Origin: an uncultured Eubacteriales bacterium
GTDB lineage: Bacteria; Bacillota; Clostridia; Christensenellales; CAG-138
Assembly (NCBI GenBank): GCA_900544965.1
Contig: UQXE01000003.1
Location: forward strand, 15,120 to 79,119
Direction of reading: 5' to 3'
Length of the DNA stretch: 64,000 bases
A program made the position numbers and the translations under genes. This document shows, in pieces, positions 27,267 to 64,000 of this stretch (position 1 is the stretch's first letter; each line of letters begins with the position of its first letter). The notes under the pieces were generated by a model. That model saw only the letters and a program-made list of their open reading frames with translations, was not told the DNA's origin and did no database searches.

Positions 27267-27764
27267 TTATGATATATAATCCAGTATGGCCAATACGTCG
27301 TTTGTATCCACCACTCCGTCCCAGTTGCAGTCGGCAAGTATCAGCGCCAGCTCAGTATCGCTCGCAAGGCCGTTGCAATAGCGCAGGAGCAGGTTTGCGT
27401 CGCTTGCGCTTATCACCCCGTCAAGGTTCACGTCGCCTATATAAACCGGAACTGCTAATATAGCATGCGGTGGTAGAGACGGAGCTTCCAGAAGCTCGAT
27501 TGCGTCACTGATATCGATTACGCCGTCACCGTTAGCATCGGCAATGTTCTTATGCAGATCAGAGATAAGATCAAAGTCTCCGCGAACATATTTTAGGATA
27601 TACAGCGCGTCGCCGCTGTTTACTCTTCCGTCCAGATTCGCGTCTCCCTGCGAAATATAATCTCTGCCAAAGGAATAGGGTTCGGCAGCGTTCGATACCG
27701 GGATAATTGATATAAACAATGCGATAGCAAGGGCTAAGGTTAATAAAACCCTGGCTTTTTTCAT
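27267..27764 (-). CDS. Secreted double-dockerin protein, paralog 1
   Basis: 165 aa. AGGAGG RBS. Signal peptide MKKARVLLTLALAIALFISIIPVSNA. Four D-x-N-x-D-G loops: GDANLDGRVNSGD, ADANGDGVIDISD, GDVNLDGVISASD, ADCNWDGVVDTND. Confidence 0.85.
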   Translation of the reverse strand: MKKARVLLTLALAIALFISIIPVSNAAEPYSFGRDYISQGDANLDGRVNSGDALYILKYVRGDFDLISDLHKNIADANGDGVIDISDAIELLEAPSLPPHAILAVPVYIGDVNLDGVISASDANLLLRYCNGLASDTELALILADCNWDGVVDTNDVLAILDYIS

Positions 27765-27806
27765 GTTAAACGTCCTCCTTGCTCAAAATTTAGCTCGTTA
27801 GCTTAA

Positions 27807-28289
27807 TTATGACAGAAAATCCAGTATGACCAATACGTCGTCTGTATCCACCGCTCCGTCCCCGTTGCAGTCGGCAAGTATAAGCGCCAGCCCTGCGTCA
27901 CCGACAAGACCGTTGCAATAGCGCAGGAGCAGGTTTGCGTCCTCCACCGTTATGCTGTTGTCCAGGTTTACGTCGCCTATGGCCAAGGTTACTCTATATG
28001 TCCTGAACGTTTTATCACCAAGGATCAGGATGGCGTCGTCGATATTTACACTTCCATCCAGATTTGCGTCAGCAAACGCCATGTGACCTTGCGATATCAT
28101 ATCAAAGTCGCCCCTTAGATACTTGAGAATAAACAGTGCGTCATCGGAATTTATCTTTCCATCCAGATTGGCGTCGCCAGTATACAAATACGTTGAGCCA
28201 AAGGGATAGATTGTAATAGCGTTTGATATTACAGGTACCGATAACGCTATGCACAGCAAAATCGCTAAAATTATTCTTACTCTTTTCAT
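27807..28289 (-). CDS. Secreted double-dockerin protein, paralog 2
   Basis: Start chosen at MKRVRIIL (GGGAG lies 9 nt upstream; ATGs at 28295 and 28307 are alternatives). Same architecture: GDANLDGKINSDD, ADANLDGSVNIDD, GDVNLDNSITVED, ADCNGDGAVDTDD. Confidence 0.8.
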   Translation of the reverse strand: MKRVRIILAILLCIALSVPVISNAITIYPFGSTYLYTGDANLDGKINSDDALFILKYLRGDFDMISQGHMAFADANLDGSVNIDDAILILGDKTFRTYRVTLAIGDVNLDNSITVEDANLLLRYCNGLVGDAGLALILADCNGDGAVDTDDVLVILDFLS

Positions 28290-28322
28290 CTTCATGTTCT
28301 CCCGCAAATTATCTTGCTGTTT

Positions 28323-28817
28323 TTATGACAGATAATCCAGTATGGCCAATACGTCGTTAGTATCAACCGCTCCATCCCTATTGCAATCGGCCAGACAAAG
28401 CGCAAGCGCTGTTCCCGCGACAGAGCCGTTGCAATATCTCAAAAGCAGGTTAGCGTCGCTTGCGTTTATCACCCCGTCAAGGTTTACGTCGCCTATAAGA
28501 TAGGCTCTAAGGAATGGATTCGTTACTCCATTCTCAAGTATCAGTATAGCGTCGTCAATATCCACCGTTCCATCGCCGGTTACGTCGGCTATTTGGGCAT
28601 GAGCGCTTGAGATGAACTGCAAATCCCCCCTGATATACTTGAGAATATATAGGGCGTCGTCACCGTTTACGTATCCGTCAAAGTTAACGTCACCTCTGTA
28701 TATTACCATCAAGCCAAACGGGCTTGATGAGCTGTTTGCGCTTGAAATGGGCGCAAACGCCAGCACCATGAGACACGCCATCATCAATGCTAATATAAAT
28801 CTAAGCTTTCTAAACAT
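28323..28817 (-). CDS. Secreted double-dockerin protein, paralog 3
   Basis: Start at MFRKLRF (GGAGG lies 8 nt upstream). Loops: GDVNFDGYVNGDD, ADVTGDGTVDIDD, GDVNLDGVINASD, ADCNRDGAVDTND. Confidence 0.8.
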   Translation of the reverse strand: MFRKLRFILALMMACLMVLAFAPISSANSSSSPFGLMVIYRGDVNFDGYVNGDDALYILKYIRGDLQFISSAHAQIADVTGDGTVDIDDAILILENGVTNPFLRAYLIGDVNLDGVINASDANLLLRYCNGSVAGTALALCLADCNRDGAVDTNDVLAILDYLS

Positions 28818-28921
28818 ATTTGTTACCTCCATTATTAATTATACCTGGTATGCATCTTTAACTGTTCGGCCAGCTGCGCACGCACCGGCACTTTTTAAGG
28901 TTGGTTCATCGTACGGCTTGG

Positions 28922-29428
28922 TTAAGACGACAGGTAGTCCAGTATGGCCAGAACGTCGTTTATGTCTATAACGCCGTCCGCATTGCAGTCGGCAAGCGTT
29001 ATGGCAAAGTTCCCCCGCCAGCTTGCTTGTCCGTTTAAATTCGACAAAAGTAGATTCGCATCCTTTGCGTCAATTATTCCGTCAAGGTTTACATCCCCGA
29101 TACGGTAAGCTGTGCGGTATCTTTGAATTACTCCCTCTTCAAGAATGAGAACGGCGTCGTCGATATCGATTACGCCATCCCAGTTTGCGTCAGCGATGGA
29201 GCGGTGCGTATCCGAAATGAACCTTCCGCTCCCGCTTAGATAATTGAGAATAAAAAGCGCGTCGTCATCGTCTATCACTCCGTCAAGGTTAGCGTCGCCC
29301 TTGTATATCATCTTTGTGCCAAACGGGGCCGTTACGCCCTGGGCGGCTGCTCCGGAATAGGGTATGATGTACAGCACCGCCAGCAAGCACATTGCCAAAG
29401 CTATTATAATTCGTGGTTTTCTAATCAT
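28922..29428 (-). CDS. Secreted double-dockerin protein, paralog 4
   Basis: 168 aa with a signal peptide. Loops: GDANLDGVIDDDD, ADANWDGVIDIDD, GDVNLDGIIDAKD, ADCNADGVIDIND. Confidence 0.8.
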   Translation of the reverse strand: MIRKPRIIIALAMCLLAVLYIIPYSGAAAQGVTAPFGTKMIYKGDANLDGVIDDDDALFILNYLSGSGRFISDTHRSIADANWDGVIDIDDAVLILEEGVIQRYRTAYRIGDVNLDGIIDAKDANLLLSNLNGQASWRGNFAITLADCNADGVIDINDVLAILDYLSS

Positions 29429-29442
29429 CTTCTCCCCCTGTT

Positions 29443-29940
29443 TTAATTAAGACGCGACGCCGCCAGATAATCCAGCAGCGCGTATACATCGTTCACGTTT
29501 ATTACGCCGTCGTTGTTAAAATCAGCCGGCGGGAGCGCGATTTCGCCTATCCCGACACTGCCGTTGCAATACTGCAATAGCAGGCTGGCGTCTGCCGCGG
29601 TGACCAAACCGTCAAGGTTCACATCTCCAACCTTGATTGGCTTAAGCAATGTTGCAGCTATATTGCCCTCCAGAATCGCGATAGCATCGCTTATCGTGAT
29701 AATCCTGTCATTATTTGCATCAGCACGGGTCTTATGAATATCGGACAACAGGGCAGCCTCGCCCTTCAAATATTTTAATATGAACAGAGCGTCGTCCGAG
29801 TTAACCGTACCGTCGAGATTTGCGTCGCCTACGGCTATCAATACTTGCGAGATTGGCGTAACAGCGCCAGCGCCAGGCGTAATGGATATAATGATTGCTA
29901 TGCAGAGTGCAAATATAAGGATATTTCTCTTCCTAAACAT
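29443..29940 (-). CDS. Secreted double-dockerin protein, paralog 5
   Basis: Start at MFRKRNILIF (GGAGG lies 8 nt upstream). Loops: GDANLDGTVNSDD, ADANNDRIITISD, GDVNLDGLVTAAD, ADFNNDGVINVND. Confidence 0.8.
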   Translation of the reverse strand: MFRKRNILIFALCIAIIISITPGAGAVTPISQVLIAVGDANLDGTVNSDDALFILKYLKGEAALLSDIHKTRADANNDRIITISDAIAILEGNIAATLLKPIKVGDVNLDGLVTAADASLLLQYCNGSVGIGEIALPPADFNNDGVINVNDVYALLDYLAASRLN

Positions 29941-29966
29941 GTTATCTACCTCCTTTAAATACAAAA

Positions 29967-30455
29967 TCACGCCGCCAGATAATCCAGCAGCGCATATACA
30001 TCGCTCATGTTTATTATGTCGTCGTTGTTAAAATCCGCAAGCGGAAGCGCGATTCCCCCGACTTCCACACTGCCGTTGCAATATTGCAGAAGCAGGCTTG
30101 CGTCTGCGGCCGTTATCAAGCCGTCAATGTTTACATCGCCGAGCCAGATTCCCTCACGCAGTCTTCGAACTACATTACCCTCTAGAATCGCGATAGCATC
30201 GTCTATCGTGATACATCTATCATTATTAGCATCTGCATAGCTCTTGTGAATATCGGACAATAGGGTAGTTTCGCCCTTCAAATACTTTAATATGAATAAC
30301 GCGTCATCCGAATTAAGCGTGCCGTCGAGGTTCGCGTCGCCCTCAATCATGAAACGTAAACGACCGCCATAATGATTAGCCATGGCCGCCGGGGCCATAG
30401 AAACCAGCATGGCAAGGCATAATAATACAGCCAACAGCTTCCTTTTCTTTAACAT
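29967..30455 (-). CDS. Secreted double-dockerin protein, paralog 6
   Basis: 162 aa. GGGAGG RBS. Signal peptide MLKKRKLLAVLLCLAMLVSMAPAAMA. Loops: GDANLDGTLNSDD, ADANNDRCITIDD, GDVNIDGLITAAD, ADFNNDDIINMSD. Confidence 0.8.
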   Translation of the reverse strand: MLKKRKLLAVLLCLAMLVSMAPAAMANHYGGRLRFMIEGDANLDGTLNSDDALFILKYLKGETTLLSDIHKSYADANNDRCITIDDAIAILEGNVVRRLREGIWLGDVNIDGLITAADASLLLQYCNGSVEVGGIALPLADFNNDDIINMSDVYALLDYLAA

Positions 30456-52555: not shown

Positions 52556-52647
52556 GGAGAAGTACCCAAGTGGCTGAAGGGGCTCCCCTGCTAAGGGAGT
52601 AGGCTGGGGTGACTGGCGCGAGGGTTCAAATCCCTCCTTCTCCGCCA
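52556..52647 (+). tRNA. tRNA-Ser (anticodon GCU), CCA encoded
   Basis: Acceptor GGAGAAG/CTTCTCC. Anticodon stem CTCCC/GGGAG with loop CTGCTAA. Long variable arm. TTCAAAT T-loop. Confidence 0.9.
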
Positions 52648-52648
52648 A

Positions 52649-52679
52649 CCCGCAGAGTTTAAGGCTTTGCGGGTTTTTT
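52649..52679 (+). terminator. Rho-independent terminator after the tRNA operon
   Basis: CCCGCA ... TGCGGG stem followed by TTTTTT. Confidence 0.7.
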
Positions 52680-52926
52680 GTTATACTTTGGCGGGTAATA
52701 AAAATGGCGTGAGAATTTGTAAAACTGCGTGCTATTGCCAACAGCTTGTTAAACCCTCATGACCGCACTTCGATACGCCAACATCATGAAGCCGTTCGCA
52801 TGGTTGTCTCGCTTAAAAAGCATGAAAGCGCTCAGGCTAAAAGCAACCGGCACGGCCTTATCAATGACACGATATACACGCTAACAGTGACTCCTGCATA
52901 TTATACCGTACCATAGAAATGAAAGG

Positions 52927-54790
52927 ATGGTATATATAATGGAATCACCAAAAAACGATGTCAAATCGGTACTGACGGTACTGCCGATAGGCCAGGGCGC
53001 CTGCAACCTGGTTGAGGTGTATGATAACTCAAATAAATTAGTCTTTTTGGGCATGGTGGATTGCGGGAATAAAACTAACGAACAGGCGTTTAGTGTTGCT
53101 GGCTACAGCGTAGGGTTAAAATCAAATGTTGAGGCTTCGTTTGATTATATAGCACAAAAAATGCTGGGAGCACTCAAGAAATAAAATACAACCTGCTTTT
53201 GGATTTATTTATTCTGACTCATCAGGATGGAGACCACTGGATCCTGCTGGAAAAAATGTTTGAGCACGTTAAGGGATACGTGTGTTATAAAAACCCCACA
53301 ACTGAAAATACCGACAAAAGTTTGTATTGCGAGGAAGAAAAAAATATAGAAAAATCACTGGTTAAATATAAAATTCTATATAAATTGGAATATGATAAAA
53401 AAAGCGGTCAATCATATTCATATTTTGTGTTTATTGACAATTATATAATGAAAGTATTTTTTCAAAAAACTGGCACTAAAACCGAATTAATTTATGAAAA
53501 TGGAAGTGTAAAACTTACAAGAAGTTGTAATAAAGATGGTGAAGTCATTAAGTTGAACGGAAAAATTATTGATAATGTACCAAATGAATATGCGCAAATT
53601 ATATGTTATTTTGACATGTTGCAAAATAACATCAATTATACAAAAGAACATGTTGAATCTGAACTGAATAAGGGTTCTAAAGTTGAACCTTTTATTACAA
53701 ACTTTTTGAAAGGCGGGGACGAATACACAAAAAAAGCGGCAGATTTTTCTAAAGAATTTTCATGGCATTTATCTAAAACGACAAATTGGATTGCTCCAAC
53801 CAATAAATACAAAGAGAACATATTTGAAAATGGTTATGTAAGTATAGATCTGTTATGCGGTACTGTTAGAGGGAAATCTAATAGTAAAAGTCTAGAAAAA
53901 CTGCCAGTTGACAGAGCAAGAGACTACAATAAAAAAAATGCAACTTCCGCCGTTACACTGTGGACCATCGGGAACACAAAGTACCTCTTCCCAGGCGACG
54001 CCACTGTGCATACGATGATGCATTTGAATAATTTGGACAATATAAACAATCACACTAACGCCATAATGACAGCGCCGCACCATGGCTCTGATAATTCATC
54101 AGATCAGCATCGCCGGAGACCAAGTATCAAGGCGACTGGGGAATCTACAGGGAATTTCTGGATAACTATAAACCCAGCGCCGTAACCATAAGCGCGGGAC
54201 GGAACTACGGGTTTGGCCATCCAGGGCCGGAGTTTGTAAAGGCGACGGATTGTTATTTTAATAATACAGGCGCAAACGAGCACATAATATACACGTGTAT
54301 TGGCGAATACGACAAAACAAAATACTATGGCCTATATCAGACTAGCTCGCCGATTTACAGTACACTGCAATATGACAAGAACGAGAAAAAGGTTTACTTT
54401 CAGCGCTTGCATTTCACTAATGACATAATTTCGGATTATACAATAGTAAACGATACGAAAATTGCATGCCGGTGCAATCCAAATCTTTCGAACTATCTCA
54501 AGCTAGATGTGGGAAGCTGCACAGGATGTTCGCCCAAGTTTATTGATGAATCAAGCAGCTCTTTGAATTGGTTCTGCAAATATATATGCGAAAGCACAAT
54601 GGCTAAAGATGAAAATACAGAGGACGACAAGAGCGCCTCTTCAACAGAAACTAGGGGTTGTTTTCCCGATGAGTGCATTGAAGAAGAGGAAGAGGAAGAG
54701 GTAGAAATGAAGGGAGCTGCCAAAGAGCGGTCAAATCATAAACCCATGAGCGAAATGCCCAGGCCGGTCAAGAGGCGAAGAACCGAATAG
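52927..54790 (+). pseudogene. MBL-fold (ComEC/Rec2-like metallo-beta-lactamase domain) protein, split over three reading frames
   Basis: Fragment 1 has VLPIGQGACNLVEV ... MVDCGN. Fragment 2 has LFILTHQDGDHW ... FPGDAT ... TAPHHGSDNS. Fragment 3 (open from 54095) has PSAVTISAGRNYGFGHPGPEFV and runs to a poly-Glu and KRRR tail. The frame changes near 53155-53185 and near 54095-54112. Confidence 0.6.
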
Positions 54791-54870
54791 ATACAAAATT
54801 TAAGGGGGGGGGATCGCTCCCCCTCTTTTTTATTTATTGTCAGAATTTTGCCGGTCTATACACAGATAAT

Positions 54871-55059
54871 GTGTATAATAAAAATAAAAGGAGGGCGCAA
54901 ACCATAAAGCTGCTTGAAAATAACGGATGGTGGCACAAGCGGGAGTGCGGCAGCCATGACATCTATACCAACGGGACAGATTGTAAACCAATATCAAGGC
55001 ATAGAGAGATTAAGGAGGCGGTTGCAAAAACAATAATTAAAAGGCGGGGCTTGAAATAG
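54871..55059 (+). CDS. hicA: HicA-family mRNA interferase toxin
   Basis: IKLLENNGWWHKRECGSHDIYTNG ... ISRHREIKEAVAKTIIKRRGL fits the HicA pattern (GW...GSH...H.EI). The start is ambiguous. The only in-frame start is GTG at 54871, which lies inside a TATAAT-like box. The AGGAGG RBS is followed by ATA at 54904. Confidence 0.7.
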   Translation: MYNKNKRRAQTIKLLENNGWWHKRECGSHDIYTNGTDCKPISRHREIKEAVAKTIIKRRGLK

Positions 55060-55111
55060 TCCCGTCCCAAAACAATATGAATATAGGAAACAGCAAGGAG
55101 GCAATGAGTAA

Positions 55112-55423
55112 ATGAAGTTAGTTTATCCGGTAGTATTTACTGGACTTGATGACGGCTATATGGCATATGTGCCGGACTTGGAAATAAATACGCAAGGTAA
55201 CGGCCTTGCGGAAGCGATCGAAATGGCGCGCGATGCCATTGGTATTATGGGCATTGATATGGAGGATGATAATAAGCCCATTCCGGAACCGTCTGACTTA
55301 TCACAGATTTTTTATGGAATGAATGAAATAGTATCTATTATAGATATTGATTTAACAGCGTATAGGCGTGCAAACGAGCAGCGAACAGTACGGCGAAATG
55401 TATCCCTCTGCCCTCCTGGCTAA
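55112..55423 (+). CDS. hicB: HicB-family antitoxin, N-terminal domain only (C-terminal RHH part is in another frame up to 55503)
   Basis: MKLVYPVVFTGLDDGYMAYVPDLEINTQGNGLAEAIEMARDAI is the HicB N-terminal fold. The shifted frame continues as LPSWLNVEAEKAGINVSAVLQTALKKEL, a ribbon-helix-helix-type tail. Confidence 0.7.
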   Translation: MKLVYPVVFTGLDDGYMAYVPDLEINTQGNGLAEAIEMARDAIGIMGIDMEDDNKPIPEPSDLSQIFYGMNEIVSIIDIDLTAYRRANEQRTVRRNVSLCPPG

Positions 55424-55505
55424 ATGTCGAGGCTGAAAAAGCGGGAATTAATGTTTCAGCAGTGCTTCAGACGGCATTAAAAAAGGAGCTTCATATGGAA
55501 TAAGG

Positions 55506-55528
55506 AAAGGGCGGCATACTCGCCCTTT
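55506..55528 (+). terminator. Hairpin after hicB
   Basis: AAAGGGCG gcatact CGCCCTTT followed by ATAAAAT. The T tract is weak. Confidence 0.4.
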
Positions 55529-55617
55529 ATAAAATAACTTTAGCTTGCGCAGCTATTACTACTCTATTACCACTTGCAAGATCAAAAGCCTTTAATTATA
55601 AATGTTTGATTCACCCT

Positions 55618-55668
55618 TGCTAAGGGAGTAGGCTAGGGGGACTGGCGCGAGGGTTCAAATCCCTCCTT
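55618..55668 (+). repeat. Partial tRNA-Ser(GCU) copy (anticodon loop to 3' side of the T-arm); putative att remnant
   Basis: TGCTAAGGGAGTAGGCTaGGGgGACTGGCGCGAGGGTTCAAATCCCTCCTT matches 52589-52639 at 49 of 51 positions. It is flanked on both sides by CCTTGCTAAG (55615-55624 and 55665-55674). Confidence 0.8.
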
Positions 55669-55694: not shown

Positions 55695-58600
55695 ATTTCA
55701 ATCCACGCACCCCACACGGGGTGCGACCACTCGTCACTGTCGTTTTACCGCTGCTGCCAATATTTCAATCCACGCACCCACACGGGGTGCGACTTGAGCC
55801 GTCCTATTCAATCCACGCACCTGACTGATTTCAATCCACGCACCCACACGGGGTGCGACCATCAATGCGGGCGTACGCATGTCAAGTCGCAGTATTTCAA
55901 TCCACGCACCCCACACGGGGTGCGACGTTGTACCCATAGTTGTGTCATAATATACCCATAATTATTTCAATCCACGCACCCCACACGGGGTGCGACTCCG
56001 CAAAGATATAACGATTGATTCATCTTTAGCTATTTCAATCCACGCACCCCACACGGGGTGCGACTGCGCGACATAATCCAAAAGACATGCATAGTACCCG
56101 AATTTCAATCCACGCACCCCACACGGGGTGCGACCGGCATGCCGCGTGGGAGGCCGTAATGGACAAATGCATTTCAATCCACGCACCCCACACGAGGTGC
56201 GACAGGATATCGGCTTAAATTGGATTTTACAGAGGTAATTTCAATCCACGCACCCCACACGGGGTGCGACGGCACTCAGCCTTACCATTGCGGCCAGGCT
56301 GAGATATTTCAATCCACGCACCCACACGGGGTGCGACCCAACAACCCCGACTTAGCCATAAAAACATTTACATTTCAATCCACGCACCCACATGGGGTGC
56401 GACCTTGCGTACAATATCGTGCATAGCTGGTCAGATGCTATTTCAATCCACGCACCCACATGGGGTGCGACCCATCCCCGTGGAGCAGGCGCGGGAGTTG
56501 GTACAAGGCATTTCAATCTATGCACCCACACGGGGTGCGACGGTGATTATATCACATGCCTCTAGAGATTGCAAATCATTTCAATCCACGCACCCACACG
56601 GGGTGCGACCTTCTGGACCGCTTGAATAATAGATATAGGGTCCCATTTCAATCCACGCACCCCACACGGGGTGCGACAGAACAACACATACAGGCTTAAT
56701 GCAATCGACAAAAAATTTCAATCCACGCACCCACATGGGGTGCGACGCGCATCCCCACGTATGGGGGCAAGCTCGTCGAATTTCAATCCACGCACCCACA
56801 TGGGGTGCGACAATTTAAGTGATATGCGCAAAGCTGATGCGATGGATTTCAATCCACGCACCCACATGGGGTGCGACACGCACTGTATTGCGGCTACCCC
56901 GCGTCACTCGACATTTCAATCCACGCACCCACATGGGGTGCGACCCCTTTCATCGTGGACAGCCACTCTAATGCTTTGAATTTCAATCCACGCACCCACA
57001 TGGGGTGCGACGGGGCGTTTTTCGCCCCTCTGGTGCATATTTTGCCAATTTCAATCCACGCACCCACATGGGGTGCGACAATTTAAGTGATATGCGCAAA
57101 GCTGATGCGATGGATTTCAATCCACGCACCCACATGGGGTGCGACAGCGGGCGCGTAGTTGATATCTACGCGCCTGTCAATTTCAATCCACGCACCCACA
57201 TGGGGTGCGACGAGGCCAACACGGGGGATAAGGTGTTTTTGGCGGATTTCAATCCACGCACCCACATGGGGTGCGACGCTTTAGCGTTAATAAGGTCTTA
57301 GTGATCGCACCGAATTTCAATCCACGCACCCACATGGGGTGCGACACCTAATGGCCGACGCAAGTTTAATGATAAGCGCCATTTCAATCCACGCACCCAC
57401 ATGGGGTGCGACGGTTTTACCGCTCCGCTAAATCGCCAGCGCAGGCAATTTCAATCCACGCACCCACATGGGGTGCGACTTACATAGCTAACGAGGGATT
57501 GAGTATCCTTGAATTTCAATCCACGCACCCACATGGGGTGCGACAGACAGGAGGCCGCAAAATCCAGCCTTGCCAAATATATTTCAATCCACGCACCCAC
57601 ATGGGGTGCGACGCTTTGTGACTGTCACAATCTGTCACAACTGTCACATTTCAATCCACGCACCCACATGGGGTGCGACATAAGTTCTCCTGGTCGCAAT
57701 CCCGTTGCGACCAATTTCAATCCACGCACCCACATGGGGTGCGACCGGTAAAACTTGTATGTTCTGCCTTCAGCGTTAACATTTCAATCCACGCACCCCA
57801 CACGGGGTGCGACCAACGCTATATTGCTCTGTGACCTCGGGCAGCATATTTCAATCCACGCACCCCACACGGGGTGCGACCGCCTAATCCCTGCGCCTTC
57901 AAGGCGGTAACAGAATTTCAATCCACGCACCCCACACGGGGTGCGACGGGATTTGCCAGCCATTCGGCTCGCTCTCATCTCCTATTTCAATCCACGCACC
58001 CCACACGGGGTGCGACATGTATAGATGATTTGGTGAAAGAGGCTTAATATATTTCAATCCACGCACCCCACACGGGGTGCGACCACAATGGCCGCAAGTA
58101 CCAGGCGCAGCCAAGATAATTTCAATCCACGCACCCCACACGGGGTGCGACGTCCGGCAGAGCGTCGGAGGCTATTATCACAACAGATTTCAATCCACGC
58201 ACCCCACACGGGGTGCGACTCCGATATTCCAATCGGCCACAATCTTTTTAACATTTCAATCCACGCACCCCACACGGGGTGCGACGGAGGATAGATATGT
58301 TTATCAGGAGACTATATTAATTTCAATCCACGCACCCCACACGGGGTGCGACTCTGTGATACGGTTGGCTCCGGCATACTTATAAAATTTCAATCCACGC
58401 ACCCCACACGGGGTGCGACTCTGTTGCAACCAAATTTCAGCTATCTCCTTTTGAATTTCAATCCACGCACCCCACACGGGGTGCGACTTCAAAATAGCCT
58501 AGAACTCTAATGCACGAGCCGATTTCAATCCACGCACCCCACACGGGGTGCGACGAAAATGTAGCCTCTGACCTGATGGACAACTTCCCAATTTCAATCC

Positions 58601-61600
58601 ACGCACCCCACACGGGGTGCGACGAGACAGGCATATGCGATCAATATAAGATAACATGGAATTTCAATCCACGCACCCCACACGGGGTGCGACGAGTTCT
58701 TTCTCACCGTTAATCTCAGTGGACGGGAATTTCAATCCACGCACCCCACACGGGGTGCGACTCAGGCATTCGCCTTCTTTTTGCTTCAGCTCGCATTTCA
58801 ATCCACGCACCCCACACGGGGTGCGACTGGGCCGTGGACGATCCAAGGGCCTCCGCAATAATTTCAATCCACGCACCCCACACGGGGTGCGACGGGTACC
58901 ATCCACCGTCCTGGATGGTACCAAATAATTTCAATCCACGCACCCCACACGGGGTGCGACGTGGCGCTGATCGCGCTTACGGCGTGGTGCGGCGATTTCA
59001 ATCCACGCACCCCACACGGGGTGCGACAAGGAAATGCAAAAAGCCTATGGATATATAGGTATTTCAATCCACGCACCCCACACGGGGTGCGACTGTCACA
59101 CCATTAAAATTGGGGAGACAGGCCACAAGATTTCAATCCACGCACCCCACACGGGGTGCGACGGCGGAGCGGTAAAACCATCGGCCGTTAACATAGGCAT
59201 TTCAATCCACGCACCCCACACGGGGTGCGACTTTATATCGCCAACGAGGGACTGAGTATCCTCGAATTTCAATCCACGCACCCCACACGGGGTGCGACGG
59301 TTCTTACCCGAGGGCGCTGTGGTAGGTACAGTGCATTTCAATCCACGCACCCCACACGGGGTGCGACCGTTATATATCGACATTGTTGTCCGGAAGAAAC
59401 AAAATTTCAATCCACGCACCCCACACGGGGTGCGACTGAGTATAGCGCACTTAAAAGTACAGCGCTACAAATTTCAATCCACGCACCCCACACGGGGTGC
59501 GACACCGATAAAAAGGTTTTTACCTTAAGGATGCAAAATTTCAATCCACGCACCCCACACGGGGTGCGACTTTGGCATTGACAAGCTAATTATCATGTAG
59601 TATTAATTTCAATCCACGCACCCCACACGGGGTGCGACAACATAAAACAGCGTTAAAATATATTGAATGGCGCATTTCAATCCACGCACCCCACACGGGG
59701 TGCGACCCTCAATGACGGCACCTCCAACTGGGGCTACGCATTTCAATCCACGCACCCCACACGGGGTGCGACTGCTGTTTCACTGCTTCGGGCCGGATCG
59801 TGTCCGATTTCAATCCACGCACCCCACACGGGGTGCGACACGCAACCGTTACATCAGGATCATCAGACTACAAATTTCAATCCACGCACCCCACACGGGG
59901 TGCGACGCCTTTAAAGATAGGAGGCTTTCTGCTATTACTGCATTTCAATCCACGCACCCCACACGGGGTGCGACGTGCGCTGTATATGGTGTACATGGCG
60001 TACGCGGATAGGATTTCAATCCACGCACCCCACACGGGGTGCGACTAGCTTGATTCTCTTTGCTTTAGTGGTACTTATTATTTCAATCCACGCACCCCAC
60101 ACGGGGTGCGACTGGGTTGTCAATAAACAATTCAAAAGTCGAAAAGATTTCAATCCACGCACCCCACACGGGGTGCGACGCCGTAACGGCTGGACACGCG
60201 CCGAGTATAACCGCGATTTCAATCCACGCACCCCACACGGGGTGCGACGGCGATTTAGTTTTCCCTGTCTGGACAGATACAAGTATTTCAATCCACGCAC
60301 CCCACACGGGGTGCGACATCAGGTATTTGCATATGCCCCCAAAGAGGGGGCAATTTCAATCCACGCACCCCACACGGGGTGCGACGCGCGGATGACACCA
60401 TACCACGGCCAATGATATGCAATTTCAATCCACGCACCCCACACGGGGTGCGACGCGATAAAGACCTCATGGGCGCGCGTGATAAATATTCATTTCAATC
60501 CACGCACCCCACACGGGGTGCGACCTCTATCTGGCTTTTTTCAACGATGCGATCCGCTGATTTCAATCCACGCACCCCACACGGGGTGCGACCTGGTAAG
60601 GCGCTTGGCCTTCCGGTTGATAAACAAAATTTCAATCCACGCACCCCACACGGGGTGCGACTAGCTTCCCATGCATCCGCAAGTTTGACAAATGTATTTC
60701 AATCCACGCACCCCACACGGGGTGCGACTAGGATCCCCCCCACCCTGCGGTTCACGGGGCTCATTTCAATCCACGCACCCCACACGGGGTGCGACGGCTT
60801 TGACCGGTGTAACTGTCTATCGACCGCGCAAATTTCAATCCACGCACCCCACACGGGGTGCGACTTGTCAGCCTGTATCTCATACTCCCTCCTGATCATT
60901 TCAATCCACGCACCCCACACGGGGTGCGACCGAGCTTACGGTAAACGGGGACGGCAGCAGGCAAATTTCAATCCACGCACCCCACACGGGGTGCGACGCG
61001 CTATGTCAGACACTTATTACAACTTTGGGTATCATTTCAATCCACGCACCCCACACGGGGTGCGACCAGAAACCGACATCGAAGCTCTGATTAAGGAAGC
61101 AATTTCAATCCACGCACCCCACACGGGGTGCGACTCGTAATGCAAAAGAGATTGTAACCCACAATACGATTTCAATCCACGCACCCCACACGGGGTGCGA
61201 CGCGTTTTCAAGACAGGCGGTAATTTCCTGCCGCATATTTCAATCCACGCACCCCACACGGGGTGCGACGTCTTTCACATGGAGAGGGTGTAGTCGGCGG
61301 TAAATTTCAATCCACGCACCCCACACGGGGTGCGACGTTATAAAATACTCTGTCGTCATGAGTGTCGTAATATTTCAATCCACGCACCCCACACGGGGTG
61401 CGACACCACTCTCGGAGTCTTTTGAGTGTTTATCCTCAAGATTTCAATCCACGCACCCCACACGGGGTGCGACACCTATCCCCCGTTACATGGGACAAAA
61501 AATAACAAATTTCAATCCACGCACCCCACACGGGGTGCGACTTGTCAAGCGGTGTGGGTTGGCGTGGATTGCTTAAATTTCAATCCACGCACCCCACACG

Positions 61601-61880
61601 GGGTGCGACCCTTGGCAGTTGGTATCCGAGCCAGAGTAATAATATTTCAATCCACGCACCCCACACGGGGTGCGACGGTTATACCGCAACTCTACATCCG
61701 ACGCCCTTTGTATTTCAATCCACGCACCCCACACGGGGTGCGACTAAGGGACGGCAAAACCCTGCCCGCCGCCGCCCAATTTCAATCCACGCACCCCACA
61801 CGGGGTGCGACGACCACGCATCTCCCCGTACCCAACCGGAGGTTGGTATTTCAATCCACGCACCCCACACGGGGTGCGAC
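55695..61880 (-). CRISPR. CRISPR array, 92 repeats / 91 spacers, type I-C-like repeat
   Basis: The 33-nt consensus on the minus strand is GTCGCACCCCGTGTGGGGTGCGTGGATTGAAAT. On the plus strand the first repeat is at 55695-55727 and the last at 61848-61880. Spacers are about 33-37 nt. I assign the minus strand because of the GTCGC...ATTGAAAT polarity, the AT-rich 196-nt flank at the 61.9 kb end, and the degenerate repeats at the 55.7 kb end. Confidence 0.97.
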
Positions 61881-62076
61881 AGCAAAAACACGTAAATTGA
61901 TGCAAAAAACATCTTCACAATCAATTACTATGCATTTAATGTAATTATATCAGTTTGCTAACGCCGTTTCAACTGAGTATATATCTCAATTTACGTCTTT
62001 TCGGGTGCGAATGCAACTATAAAACCAGGATAACTATAGATTCGCGCTATTAAATTTTAAAGCATTCTATAATCAT

Positions 62077-62589: not shown

Positions 62590-63453
62590 TTATTATTTTC
62601 CCCTCTCCAGAATTGTCATATAAATTGTAACATAAATGTGAATGTATTCAATAGTTTTATTAAGAAAATAGTATGTATTACACTATTTGGCAACGCTGCT
62701 GTTTGTCGATTTTTAGGATATGTAGCTATAATCGATAAATCTGCGAGTAGTATTGACACGTTTGTTCGGCTTTGATAAAATGATTTAGAATAAACATTCC
62801 AAAGCTAGAGAAAGAAAATATATCATGTCGCATTGCAGACACCATCGTTACAAGCGTCTATTGTCCTTTGCCTTAGTTTTGTCTACCTAACCCTTTAATA
62901 TAAATAACGAACCATCCAAAACATACGGCCTTGGATGGTCTGTTAAGTGTAGCCTTTCGCACCTTGAAAACTAATATATTATTTATCTCATCCATGAAGC
63001 CAGCTGTAATAATACCTCTAGGAAGCGCAATCTCGGCAATACCAAAAAAGAAGGTTATGCAGAAAAACATACTTAACAAAGCCTATGCAACTCATCCTGA
63101 TATGAAGGATGACAATACAAATTTTGTGTCACAGTACCTGCAGGCCCAAGGCGTTCCTTGTACTGGCAAGTGGAATATATACAAAAAATCATATGGCCGC
63201 CCAAGTAACTTAAGATAATGCAAGCTTGTTTTTTGCAGCTATATCCATTATTCCTGATGTAATAGAATTTAGCGTTAGCATGGAGCCCATTCGGTATGGG
63301 GCCTATACTCATACTTAGGCTTTTTCGTATTGAACATAAATATTGAACTAGAATTAATGCCGTATTGGGCCTCAATTACTAGCTATACTCTTTCCTGTTT
63401 CAAATACAAAAAATCAGCCTTTTAATCAGGCTGATTTACATGCTTACATAACG

Positions 63454-63987: not shown

Positions 63988-64000
63988 GTAACATCCCTTC

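Follow-up and report, generated by a model that had tools for sequence, protein, structure and literature searches.

The 64-kb window analyzed here, i.e., the whole stretch of 64,000 nucleotides from an uncultured bacterium of the Christensenellales, contains close to one end a large CRISPR array, followed by an AT-rich leader and then by lipoprotein-like genes (Table 1). Two independent parses, a fuzzy scan and an anchored regular expression, agree on 92 repeat units and 91 spacers between 55695 and 61880, the number of repeats being exactly that counted by reading in a preliminary description of this DNA, and Tandem Repeats Finder returned the region as a series of overlapping periodic rows. 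A periodic array of such size is far beyond chance. Its unit reads ATTTCAATCCACGCACCCCACACGGGGTGCGAC on the plus strand and GTCGCACCCCGTGTGGGGTGCGTGGATTGAAAT on the minus strand, the repeats are 32–33 nt and the spacers 33–38 nt long (mean 34.9). The canonical 33-nt minus-strand repeat is present in 68 of the 92 copies. Another 18 copies, namely repeats 11–12 and 16–31, are a 32-nt variant (...CCCCATGTGGGTGCG...) with a CATGT loop, four copies belong to another 32-nt form, and the remaining two are singletons; the 32-nt variants sit in older parts of the array. Toward position 61880, on the other hand, repeats 32–92 are all identical, so that the 61 homogeneous leader-side repeats of the preliminary description are confirmed. 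Among the 91 spacers, 90 distinct sequences are found. The identity of spacers 17 and 21 is the result of an internal duplication or of a double acquisition, spacers 27 and 53 represent the same target in variant form, and spacer 2 is a decayed unit that includes the 3′ half of one repeat.

The array had previously been assigned to type I-C from the layout of such repeats, and the structure of the repeat bears this out. When the minus-strand repeat is folded as RNA (−16.6 kcal/mol, z = −3.7), a G+C-rich stem is formed that is preceded by a 5′ overhang of 2 nt (GU). The 32-nt variant folds into a 7-bp stem with a 5-nt loop, and its overhangs are unchanged. Characterized I-C repeats have a 7-nt stem and overhangs of 2 and 11 nt, and the 11-nt 3′ overhang starts with U-G-G, the site of cleavage and recognition by Cas5c (PMC8524198). 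The array repeat exhibits each of these properties, with its 2-nt 5′ overhang, its stem of 7–8 bp and its 11-nt 3′ tail starting from UGG. For comparison, we used I-C loci in which an array is linked to CRISPR-associated (cas) genes, i.e., L019 (Cas8c/Csd1, Cas7/Csd2, Cas4, Cas1c and Cas2 identified with curated NCBIfam models), L020 (Cas7, Cas4, Cas1c and Cas2 identified by tblastn), L040 (the C-terminal part of Cas1c plus Cas2), L054–L056 and L057–L060 (full cas3-cas5d-csd1-cas7-cas4-cas1-cas2 operons according to precomputed Pfam assignments) and L061, the RefSeq-annotated cas3-cas5c-cas8c-cas7c-cas4-cas1c-cas2 locus on plasmid pDVUL01 of N. vulgaris DP4. The folded repeats of these reference loci have the same architecture as the window repeat, and in the orientation of the cas genes all of them read GTCGC→. 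The window repeat matches those of L019, L020, L054, L057 and L061 at 26–30 positions (the 32-nt variant being taken for 32-nt references), and the differences in the stem are compensatory, as exemplified by the pair A6-U19 in the window versus G6-C19 in L020. Rfam covariance models gave no match at the gathering threshold anywhere in the array, and at E ≤ 1 only two chance-level matches to unrelated small RNA families were returned between 61600 and 62100. The agreement with the published structure and with seven cas-linked I-C arrays, including the annotated prototype from D. vulgaris, supports the assignment, and we regard the array as a genuine member of type I-C, the mechanism of which is standard for this type.

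The likeness to the classical type I-C (Dvulg) systems of D. vulgaris (pDVUL01) and Bacillus halodurans extends to the 32–33-nt repeat, the GU 5′ overhang, the G+C-rich stem of 7–8 bp and the loop of 4–5 nt, and arrays of this type have the 11-nt tail UGGAUUGAAA(U/C), a protospacer-adjacent motif (PAM) of the 5′-TTC type, an AT-rich leader and spacer addition at the leader end in common. Spacer lengths also agree (33–36 nt in D. vulgaris, 33–38 nt in the window). With its 92 repeats, the window array is about twice as large as that of D. vulgaris (45 repeats), and it differs in its surroundings as well: in the I-C (Dvulg) reference loci the array directly follows cas2, whereas in the window a lipoprotein-like open reading frame (ORF) occupies the position of cas2. 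In the gut-metagenome loci L040 and L057–L060 the repeat is GTCGCACCCCGCAAGGGGTGCGTGGATTGAAAT, the stem and 3′ handle of which are identical to those of the window repeat such that only the 4-nt loop differs, and the leaders of these loci have an inverted repeat after cas2 and a TTTTGCT junction just as the window leader has. The organism represented by L057–L060 is a different one, with a G+C content of 60–61% versus 50% in the window, an adjacent full cas operon and arrays of 13–20 repeats; none of the spacers of L040 and L057–L060 is found in the window array.

The leader had been proposed to be the AT-rich stretch between 61881 and 62076, with the array read on the minus strand, and this proposal agrees with three lines of evidence: new spacers are all found at the 61880 end (see below), a promoter-like site is suitably placed, and motifs of cas-linked leaders recur. 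The promoter-like site has an extended −10 element and is the best sigma-70-like match between 55400 and 62700 (11 of 12 positions), a consensus match only; it is directed into the array and lies 63 nt upstream of the first repeat. Immediately downstream of the cas2 stop codon, the cas-linked leaders of L019, L020, L040, L054 and L057–L060 contain the inverted repeat GTGCGAA...TTCGCAC or a version of it, and in most of them (C/T)TTTTGCT forms the end that meets the first repeat. These reference leaders (L019 5107–5281; L020 2803–3014; L040 2600–2772; L054 10292–10460; L057–L060 10292–10461) belong to different gut organisms. Judged by its motifs, the window leader is homologous in layout to those of cas-linked I-C loci and, as both inverted repeat and junction motif are present, it is there in its entirety, including the part that normally abuts cas2. 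Among strains of the species the leader is 99.8–100% identical. The gene in the position of cas2 is the 170-aa ORF with a lipobox-like N-terminus, and both ORFs between the leader and the end of the window start with lipobox-like signal peptides when read from the translation (LLTGC and SFAAC). The two lipoprotein-like genes are separated by some 850 bp of AT-rich DNA (62600–63450) without a convincing ORF, in which tblastn detected no cas remnant.

We consider it probable that the window harbors a functional type I-C array whose cas genes are located elsewhere, physically apart from the array. In a Pfam scan of 40 window ORFs, which included all long ones, housekeeping domains or domains unrelated to CRISPR were found (CysS, AddB, ABC ATPases, GlmS, dockerin, Jag/YidC/RnpA, DnaB, L9, GdpP, LysS, GreA, Dus and a HicB-like antitoxin), several small ORFs were devoid of domains, and a gene for a spore photoproduct lyase is also present; this gene and the dockerin genes are in keeping with a member of the Clostridia. 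Contig L029 represents the same strain, as its sequence agrees with that of the window at 100.000% identity over 7,177 bp and includes spacers 18–91 in the same order; in the 8.6 kb that it adds beyond position 64000, genes for a glyoxalase, a 382-aa protein and MacB-type permeases are present and no cas gene. The same is true for other strains up to about 10 kb past the leader, where genes for TspO and a protein of the beta-lactamase family are located. The preliminary description had stated orphan status for at least 2.1 kb on the leader side. In the same strain this now reaches at least 8.6 kb past 64000; other strains are free of cas genes for about 10 kb; and toward the trailer the distance is 55.7 kb. 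The cas operon that the description had envisaged as a counter-finding just beyond 64000 is absent from the 8.6 kb of L029 examined. Cas genes of the window strain would have to lie farther away than 8.6 kb past 64000 toward the leader or 55.7 kb toward the trailer, and by a working yardstick of about 10 kb without cas genes the array is an isolated, or orphan, one.

Several points weigh against a functional array with remote cas genes. Pfam models detected no cas gene in the window or in any locus of the same species, and tblastn with verified I-C Cas8c, Cas7, Cas4, Cas1c and Cas2 sequences detected no remnant in them. Exact-repeat scans were run on 185,579 reference genomes (GTDB) and on 241 million metagenome records. 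The former returned one short contig without cas genes, and the latter 11 stretches, none of which has cas genes: six are the locus described here and five are other contexts, i.e., a second small array (see below) or fragments too short to place. Homology searches with Cas1c and Cas2 gave no cluster attributable to this species among the best 120 of 8000 matches each. Furthermore, the exact trinucleotide TTC flanks only three of the seven prophage protospacers described below, transcription, processing and interference are predicted from sequence data, and the window strain could recently have lost its cas genes while the array persists. Candidates for cas genes of the species were discarded. 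Two prevalent Cas2 clusters stem from other organisms (P0394 at 54% G+C and P0301 at 60–61% G+C), and L040, in which Cas1c, Cas2, a leader and one repeat with the same stem and handle are combined, was excluded as an array-less cas locus of this species by its G+C content and its identity with the organism of L057–L060.

The lack of cas genes over these distances and beside any exact copy of the repeat in the two public collections would also fit a true orphan relic, meaning that this strain has lost its cas operon, that the array neither grows nor protects, and that the spacers reflect past activity of the lineage. Orphan arrays are a documented category (PMC8616872, citing Shmakov et al. 2020), and such arrays, the I-F CRISPR4 arrays of E. 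coli among them, likewise have no cas genes nearby. Many of them are small, decayed or static, whereas the window array is of large size, its leader is intact, the half next to the leader is homogeneous, and in the population it demonstrably still acquires spacers. Arrays remote from cas genes are uncommon but documented, and remote arrays that are served in trans are mechanistically unremarkable.

Further information came from other strains. By exact look-up of three small array-flanking proteins, more than 25 versions of the locus were collected, to which the metagenome repeat scan added six more; the sample names mostly point to human-gut metagenome assemblies. Proteins of the locus are found on hundreds of contigs, which means that the species is common. 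The flanks are 99.7–100% identical among strains on the leader side and 97.6–99.9% on the trailer side. In the 20 arrays that reach the leader, the trailer and middle spacers are held in common and the leader ends differ. Apart from L029, common spacers in all other strains are confined to the trailer side and the middle (e.g., 1–2, 6–15, 29–33, 40–47 and 54–63), and the leader-ward ones are private, amounting to 28 in the lineage of the window and 27–33 in a sister clade. The arrays of this sister clade form a nested series with differences confined to the leader end: relative to L004, L016 and L027, one spacer is added in L006, two in L002 and L028, three in L032, and five in L023, L025, L030 and L031. 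Internal block deletions and duplications are also seen among the arrays. It follows from the nested series that spacer acquisition is polarized to the 61880 end, proceeds stepwise and is ongoing in the population. The recent activity that the preliminary description had suggested from the homogeneous repeats is thereby substantiated by additions in nearly identical strains; its driving force would be a cas operon elsewhere in the genome, which we infer from the population data. For a relic, these observations are difficult to accommodate. Strains with flanks that are 99.7–100% identical differ by 1–5 and by about 28–33 leader-end spacers, which calls for adaptation genes in many present-day lineages, neither the leader nor the 61 repeats next to it show decay, and the lineage of the window has gained, with its 28 private spacers, as many as the sister clade. 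We therefore regard a relic as unlikely. An array that appears as an orphan in a single window is demonstrably alive by population comparison alone, without any cas gene being seen, and this comparison also yielded the growing end, the PAM, a targeted phage and evidence of selection against self-targeting.

The phage was found in one strain (L001/L026), in which a prophage with genes for an integrase, helix-turn-helix repressors, RecT and YqaJ adjoins the array. Of about 240 pooled spacers, seven distinct ones match this prophage with 0–3 mismatches; the window contributes four (spacers 35, 42, 44 and 49, Table 1) and other strains the remaining three. When oriented like the CRISPR RNA (crRNA), the 5′ flanks of the seven protospacers read TTC (three cases), TTT (two cases), TCC and GTC. 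Accordingly, T is found at −3 and at −2 in six of the seven and C at −1 in five (naive joint probability about 4e-8 in a small sample), and no motif is present on the 3′ side. TTC is the canonical PAM of type I-C, and TTT and TTN variants have been catalogued for it (PMC8482600); the 5′ T-T-C consensus fits this PAM. A TTC motif had been predicted beforehand, and the seven protospacers provide it in the orientation that had been proposed. The strain with the prophage is the sole carrier; its array is reduced to four full repeats and lacks all of the spacers that match. A truncated fifth repeat forms the fusion point with the prophage (L001 8560–10046 and L026 1–9400), and the strain's own newest spacer resembles its prophage with three mismatches and a TTC flank. 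When the full array was searched against GenBank phages and the plasmids in PLSDB, all matches were between arrays and no protospacer was returned; three spacer cores and one prophage protein, scanned exactly against IMG/VR, gave no matches, and a homology search with a prophage protein led to a very widespread methylase-like family and no usable contigs. The array can be read as a strain-resolved record of phage exposure, and it links at least one prophage to a host from this lineage of the Christensenellales.

Two perfect matches to chromosomal genes were also found. The target of spacer 78 lies beyond the leader, 7.1 kb from the spacer, in a gene for a membrane protein of 382 aa (virtual window position about 68103–68136), and spacer and target are both present on contig L029 (4108–4141 and 11280–11313). 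A spacer of other strains matches mnmG (L013 6690–6725), where the 5′ flank is GCG. Neither of these perfect self-targets has a PAM on the 5′ side, and both are followed by GAA, which is TTC on the opposite strand (chance of both about 2e-4); these are thus prespacers that were picked with a TTC PAM and inserted in inverted orientation. Such inverted self-targeting spacers are not usable by a PAM-dependent effector. They are what is expected to persist if PAM-dependent interference removes correctly oriented self-targeting spacers. While the surviving self-targets are all inverted, the 5′ motif of every prophage target matches at least two of the three positions of TTC, and this pattern, drawn from nine protospacers, fits active interference in the species. 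The perfect self-targeting spacer in the window strain could be taken as a sign of a relic that no longer interferes, but as it is inverted and useless to a PAM-dependent effector, a loss of interference is not required to explain it.

Table 1. Features of the type I-C CRISPR locus in the 64-kb window
Feature	Coordinates	Strand	Remarks
3′-part copy of tRNA-Ser(GCT), 52 nt, anticodon to T-arm	55617..55668	plus	Exactly 26 nt before the first repeat
CRISPR array, 92 repeats and 91 spacers	55695..61880	minus	Parsed; polarity from strain comparison; oldest spacer 55728, newest 61847
Spacer 2 with 3′ half of repeat (GGTGCGTGGATTGAAT)	55794..55827	minus	Array parse; same unit in several strains
16 consecutive 32-nt variant repeats (16–31), GTCGCACCCCATGTGGGTGCGTGGATTGAAAT	56715..57745	minus	Older array half; 7-bp stem, 5-nt loop
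Spacer 17, identical in sequence to spacer 21 (57080–57113)	56812..56845	minus	Array parse
Spacer 35, match to L001/L026 prophage	58017..58050	minus	0 mismatches; 5′ flank TTC
Spacer 42, match to L001/L026 prophage	58488..58521	minus	1 mismatch; 5′ flank TTT
Spacer 44, match to L001/L026 prophage	58624..58660	minus	0 mismatches; 5′ flank TTT
Spacer 49, match to L001/L026 prophage	58961..58994	minus	2 mismatches; 5′ flank TCC
Spacer 78, perfect self-target (gene for 382-aa membrane protein)	60931..60964	minus	5′ flank AAT; TTC on opposite strand
Leader-proximal (first) repeat GTCGCACCCCGTGTGGGGTGCGTGGATTGAAAT	61848..61880	minus	RNA fold: GU, 8-bp stem, 4-nt loop, 11-nt tail UGGAUUGAAAU
Leader-repeat junction motif TTTTTGCT	61881..61888	minus	Same as (C/T)TTTTGCT in L020, L040, L054, L057, L059 and L060
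Leader, 196 nt, 30.6% G+C (window 50%)	61881..62076	minus	Begins right after stop codon of same-strand 170-aa ORF
Promoter-like site TTGAAA (61972–61967), 17-nt spacer, TG-TATAAT (61949–61944)	61944..61972	minus	Consensus match
Inverted repeat GCGAAT (62045–62040)...ATTCGC (62012–62007)	62007..62045	minus	Cas-distal leader end; counterpart of GTGCGAA...TTCGCAC after cas2

In a functional array with cas genes at a distance, transcription would start from a promoter in the 196-nt leader and proceed on the minus strand toward lower coordinates. An endoribonuclease of the Cas5c type would cleave the repeats on the 3′ side of the hairpin base, such that each crRNA would carry an 11-nt 5′ handle (UGGAUUGAAAU) in front of a spacer of some 35 nt and end with a 3′ hairpin, and these crRNAs would guide a Cas5c-Cas8c-Cas7 complex and Cas3 to DNA flanked by 5′-TTC. 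New spacers enter only at the junction between leader and repeat at 61880, as evident from the strain comparison, and their addition would be accomplished by Cas4-Cas1c-Cas2 encoded elsewhere, outside of the cas-free distances given above for the leader and the trailer side.

The cas genes could also reside on a plasmid, an integrative and conjugative element or a prophage that is variably present and serves the array in trans, array and cas genes then being inherited separately. The repeat is never linked to cas genes in any contig recovered, the locus is situated beside a tRNA-associated variable islet and takes up prophage and toxin-antitoxin insertions (see below), and another gut organism has nearly identical I-C operons in differing genomic surroundings (L057/L059 versus L058/L060), such operons being found on plasmids too, all of which would suit such an arrangement. 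However, no such element was found for this species, and scans of viral contigs with the 3′ half of the repeat gave only arrays or solitary repeats with other loops. A distant chromosomal operon explains the data equally well. We deem a mobile cas operon very improbable.

Going one step further, memory and machinery might be uncoupled in this prevalent gut species, with a very active I-C array of 50–90 spacers and its complete leader standing alone close to a tRNA islet, a distant or mobile cas operon that has no array of its own, and an array that also acts as a platform for recombination. This broader picture is doubtful at present. Its last element derives from the strain whose prophage is joined to a repeat and from a RelB/YafQ cassette that is flanked by repeats at two loci. 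Should the cas operon indeed be array-less or mobile, the species would provide a clean natural case of trans-acting CRISPR memory.

The RelB/YafQ cassette is a toxin-antitoxin unit of 675 bp that is placed between two CRISPR repeats like an oversized spacer and has an AT-rich region of its own upstream. One strain has it in the main array (L005 9790–10528), and it is also found at the locus of a second array (L013 1900–2637, 97.6% identical) and in L012. Its presence at two loci suggests exchange by recombination between repeats. The second array is small, has the same repeat and is located between a methyltransferase gene and genes for GNAT-type and BlaR1-like proteins and mnmG (L013 1847–2904; also in L012 and possibly in L007 and L011); an AT-rich leader and cas genes are absent from it in L013. 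It is attributed to the same genome as the main array because L013 and L008 come from the same sample and have a coverage of 53.98x and 53.99x, respectively.

Repeats of the I-C type were also observed in viral sequences. Six IMG/VR contigs of 14–41 kb from phages related to each other (L042, L043, L045, L047, L049 and L050) contain one solitary repeat, GTCGCACCCCTCGCGGGGTGCGTGGATTGAAAT, in the same intergenic context. These are candidates for solitary repeat units or for RNA anti-CRISPRs directed against the I-C system of another host; spacers of the species studied here had no matches on these contigs. In L040, a contig classified as viral, the segment comprising Cas1c, Cas2, leader and one repeat is joined to phage genes of the lysis type (2300–2600), and this joint probably is an assembly chimera via identity of spacer and protospacer or a prophage inserted in an array.

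On the trailer side, the preliminary description had noticed a tRNA fragment 26 nt from the array, and this fragment is the 52-nt tRNA-Ser(GCT) copy listed in Table 1. ARAGORN and Rfam detected no complete tRNA at 55617–55668. An intact gene for tRNA-Ser(GCT) lies 3 kb upstream of it (52556–52647), and the partial copy is probably the far boundary of a variable islet of 3 kb that starts at the intact tRNA. The content of this islet (52556–55668) differs by strain, with proteins of 81, 328 and 127 aa in some cases and a protein of 629 or 635 aa in others, together with HicA/HicB; it looks like a scar of tRNA-targeted integration events beside the trailer of the array. Farther away from the array, downstream of rnpA-yidC-jag, a run of six small minus-strand ORFs (27267–30455; 162–175 aa) was noted. 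A dockerin type I domain was found in all three of those scanned, and such a run is unusual beside a gene cluster of the replication-origin type.

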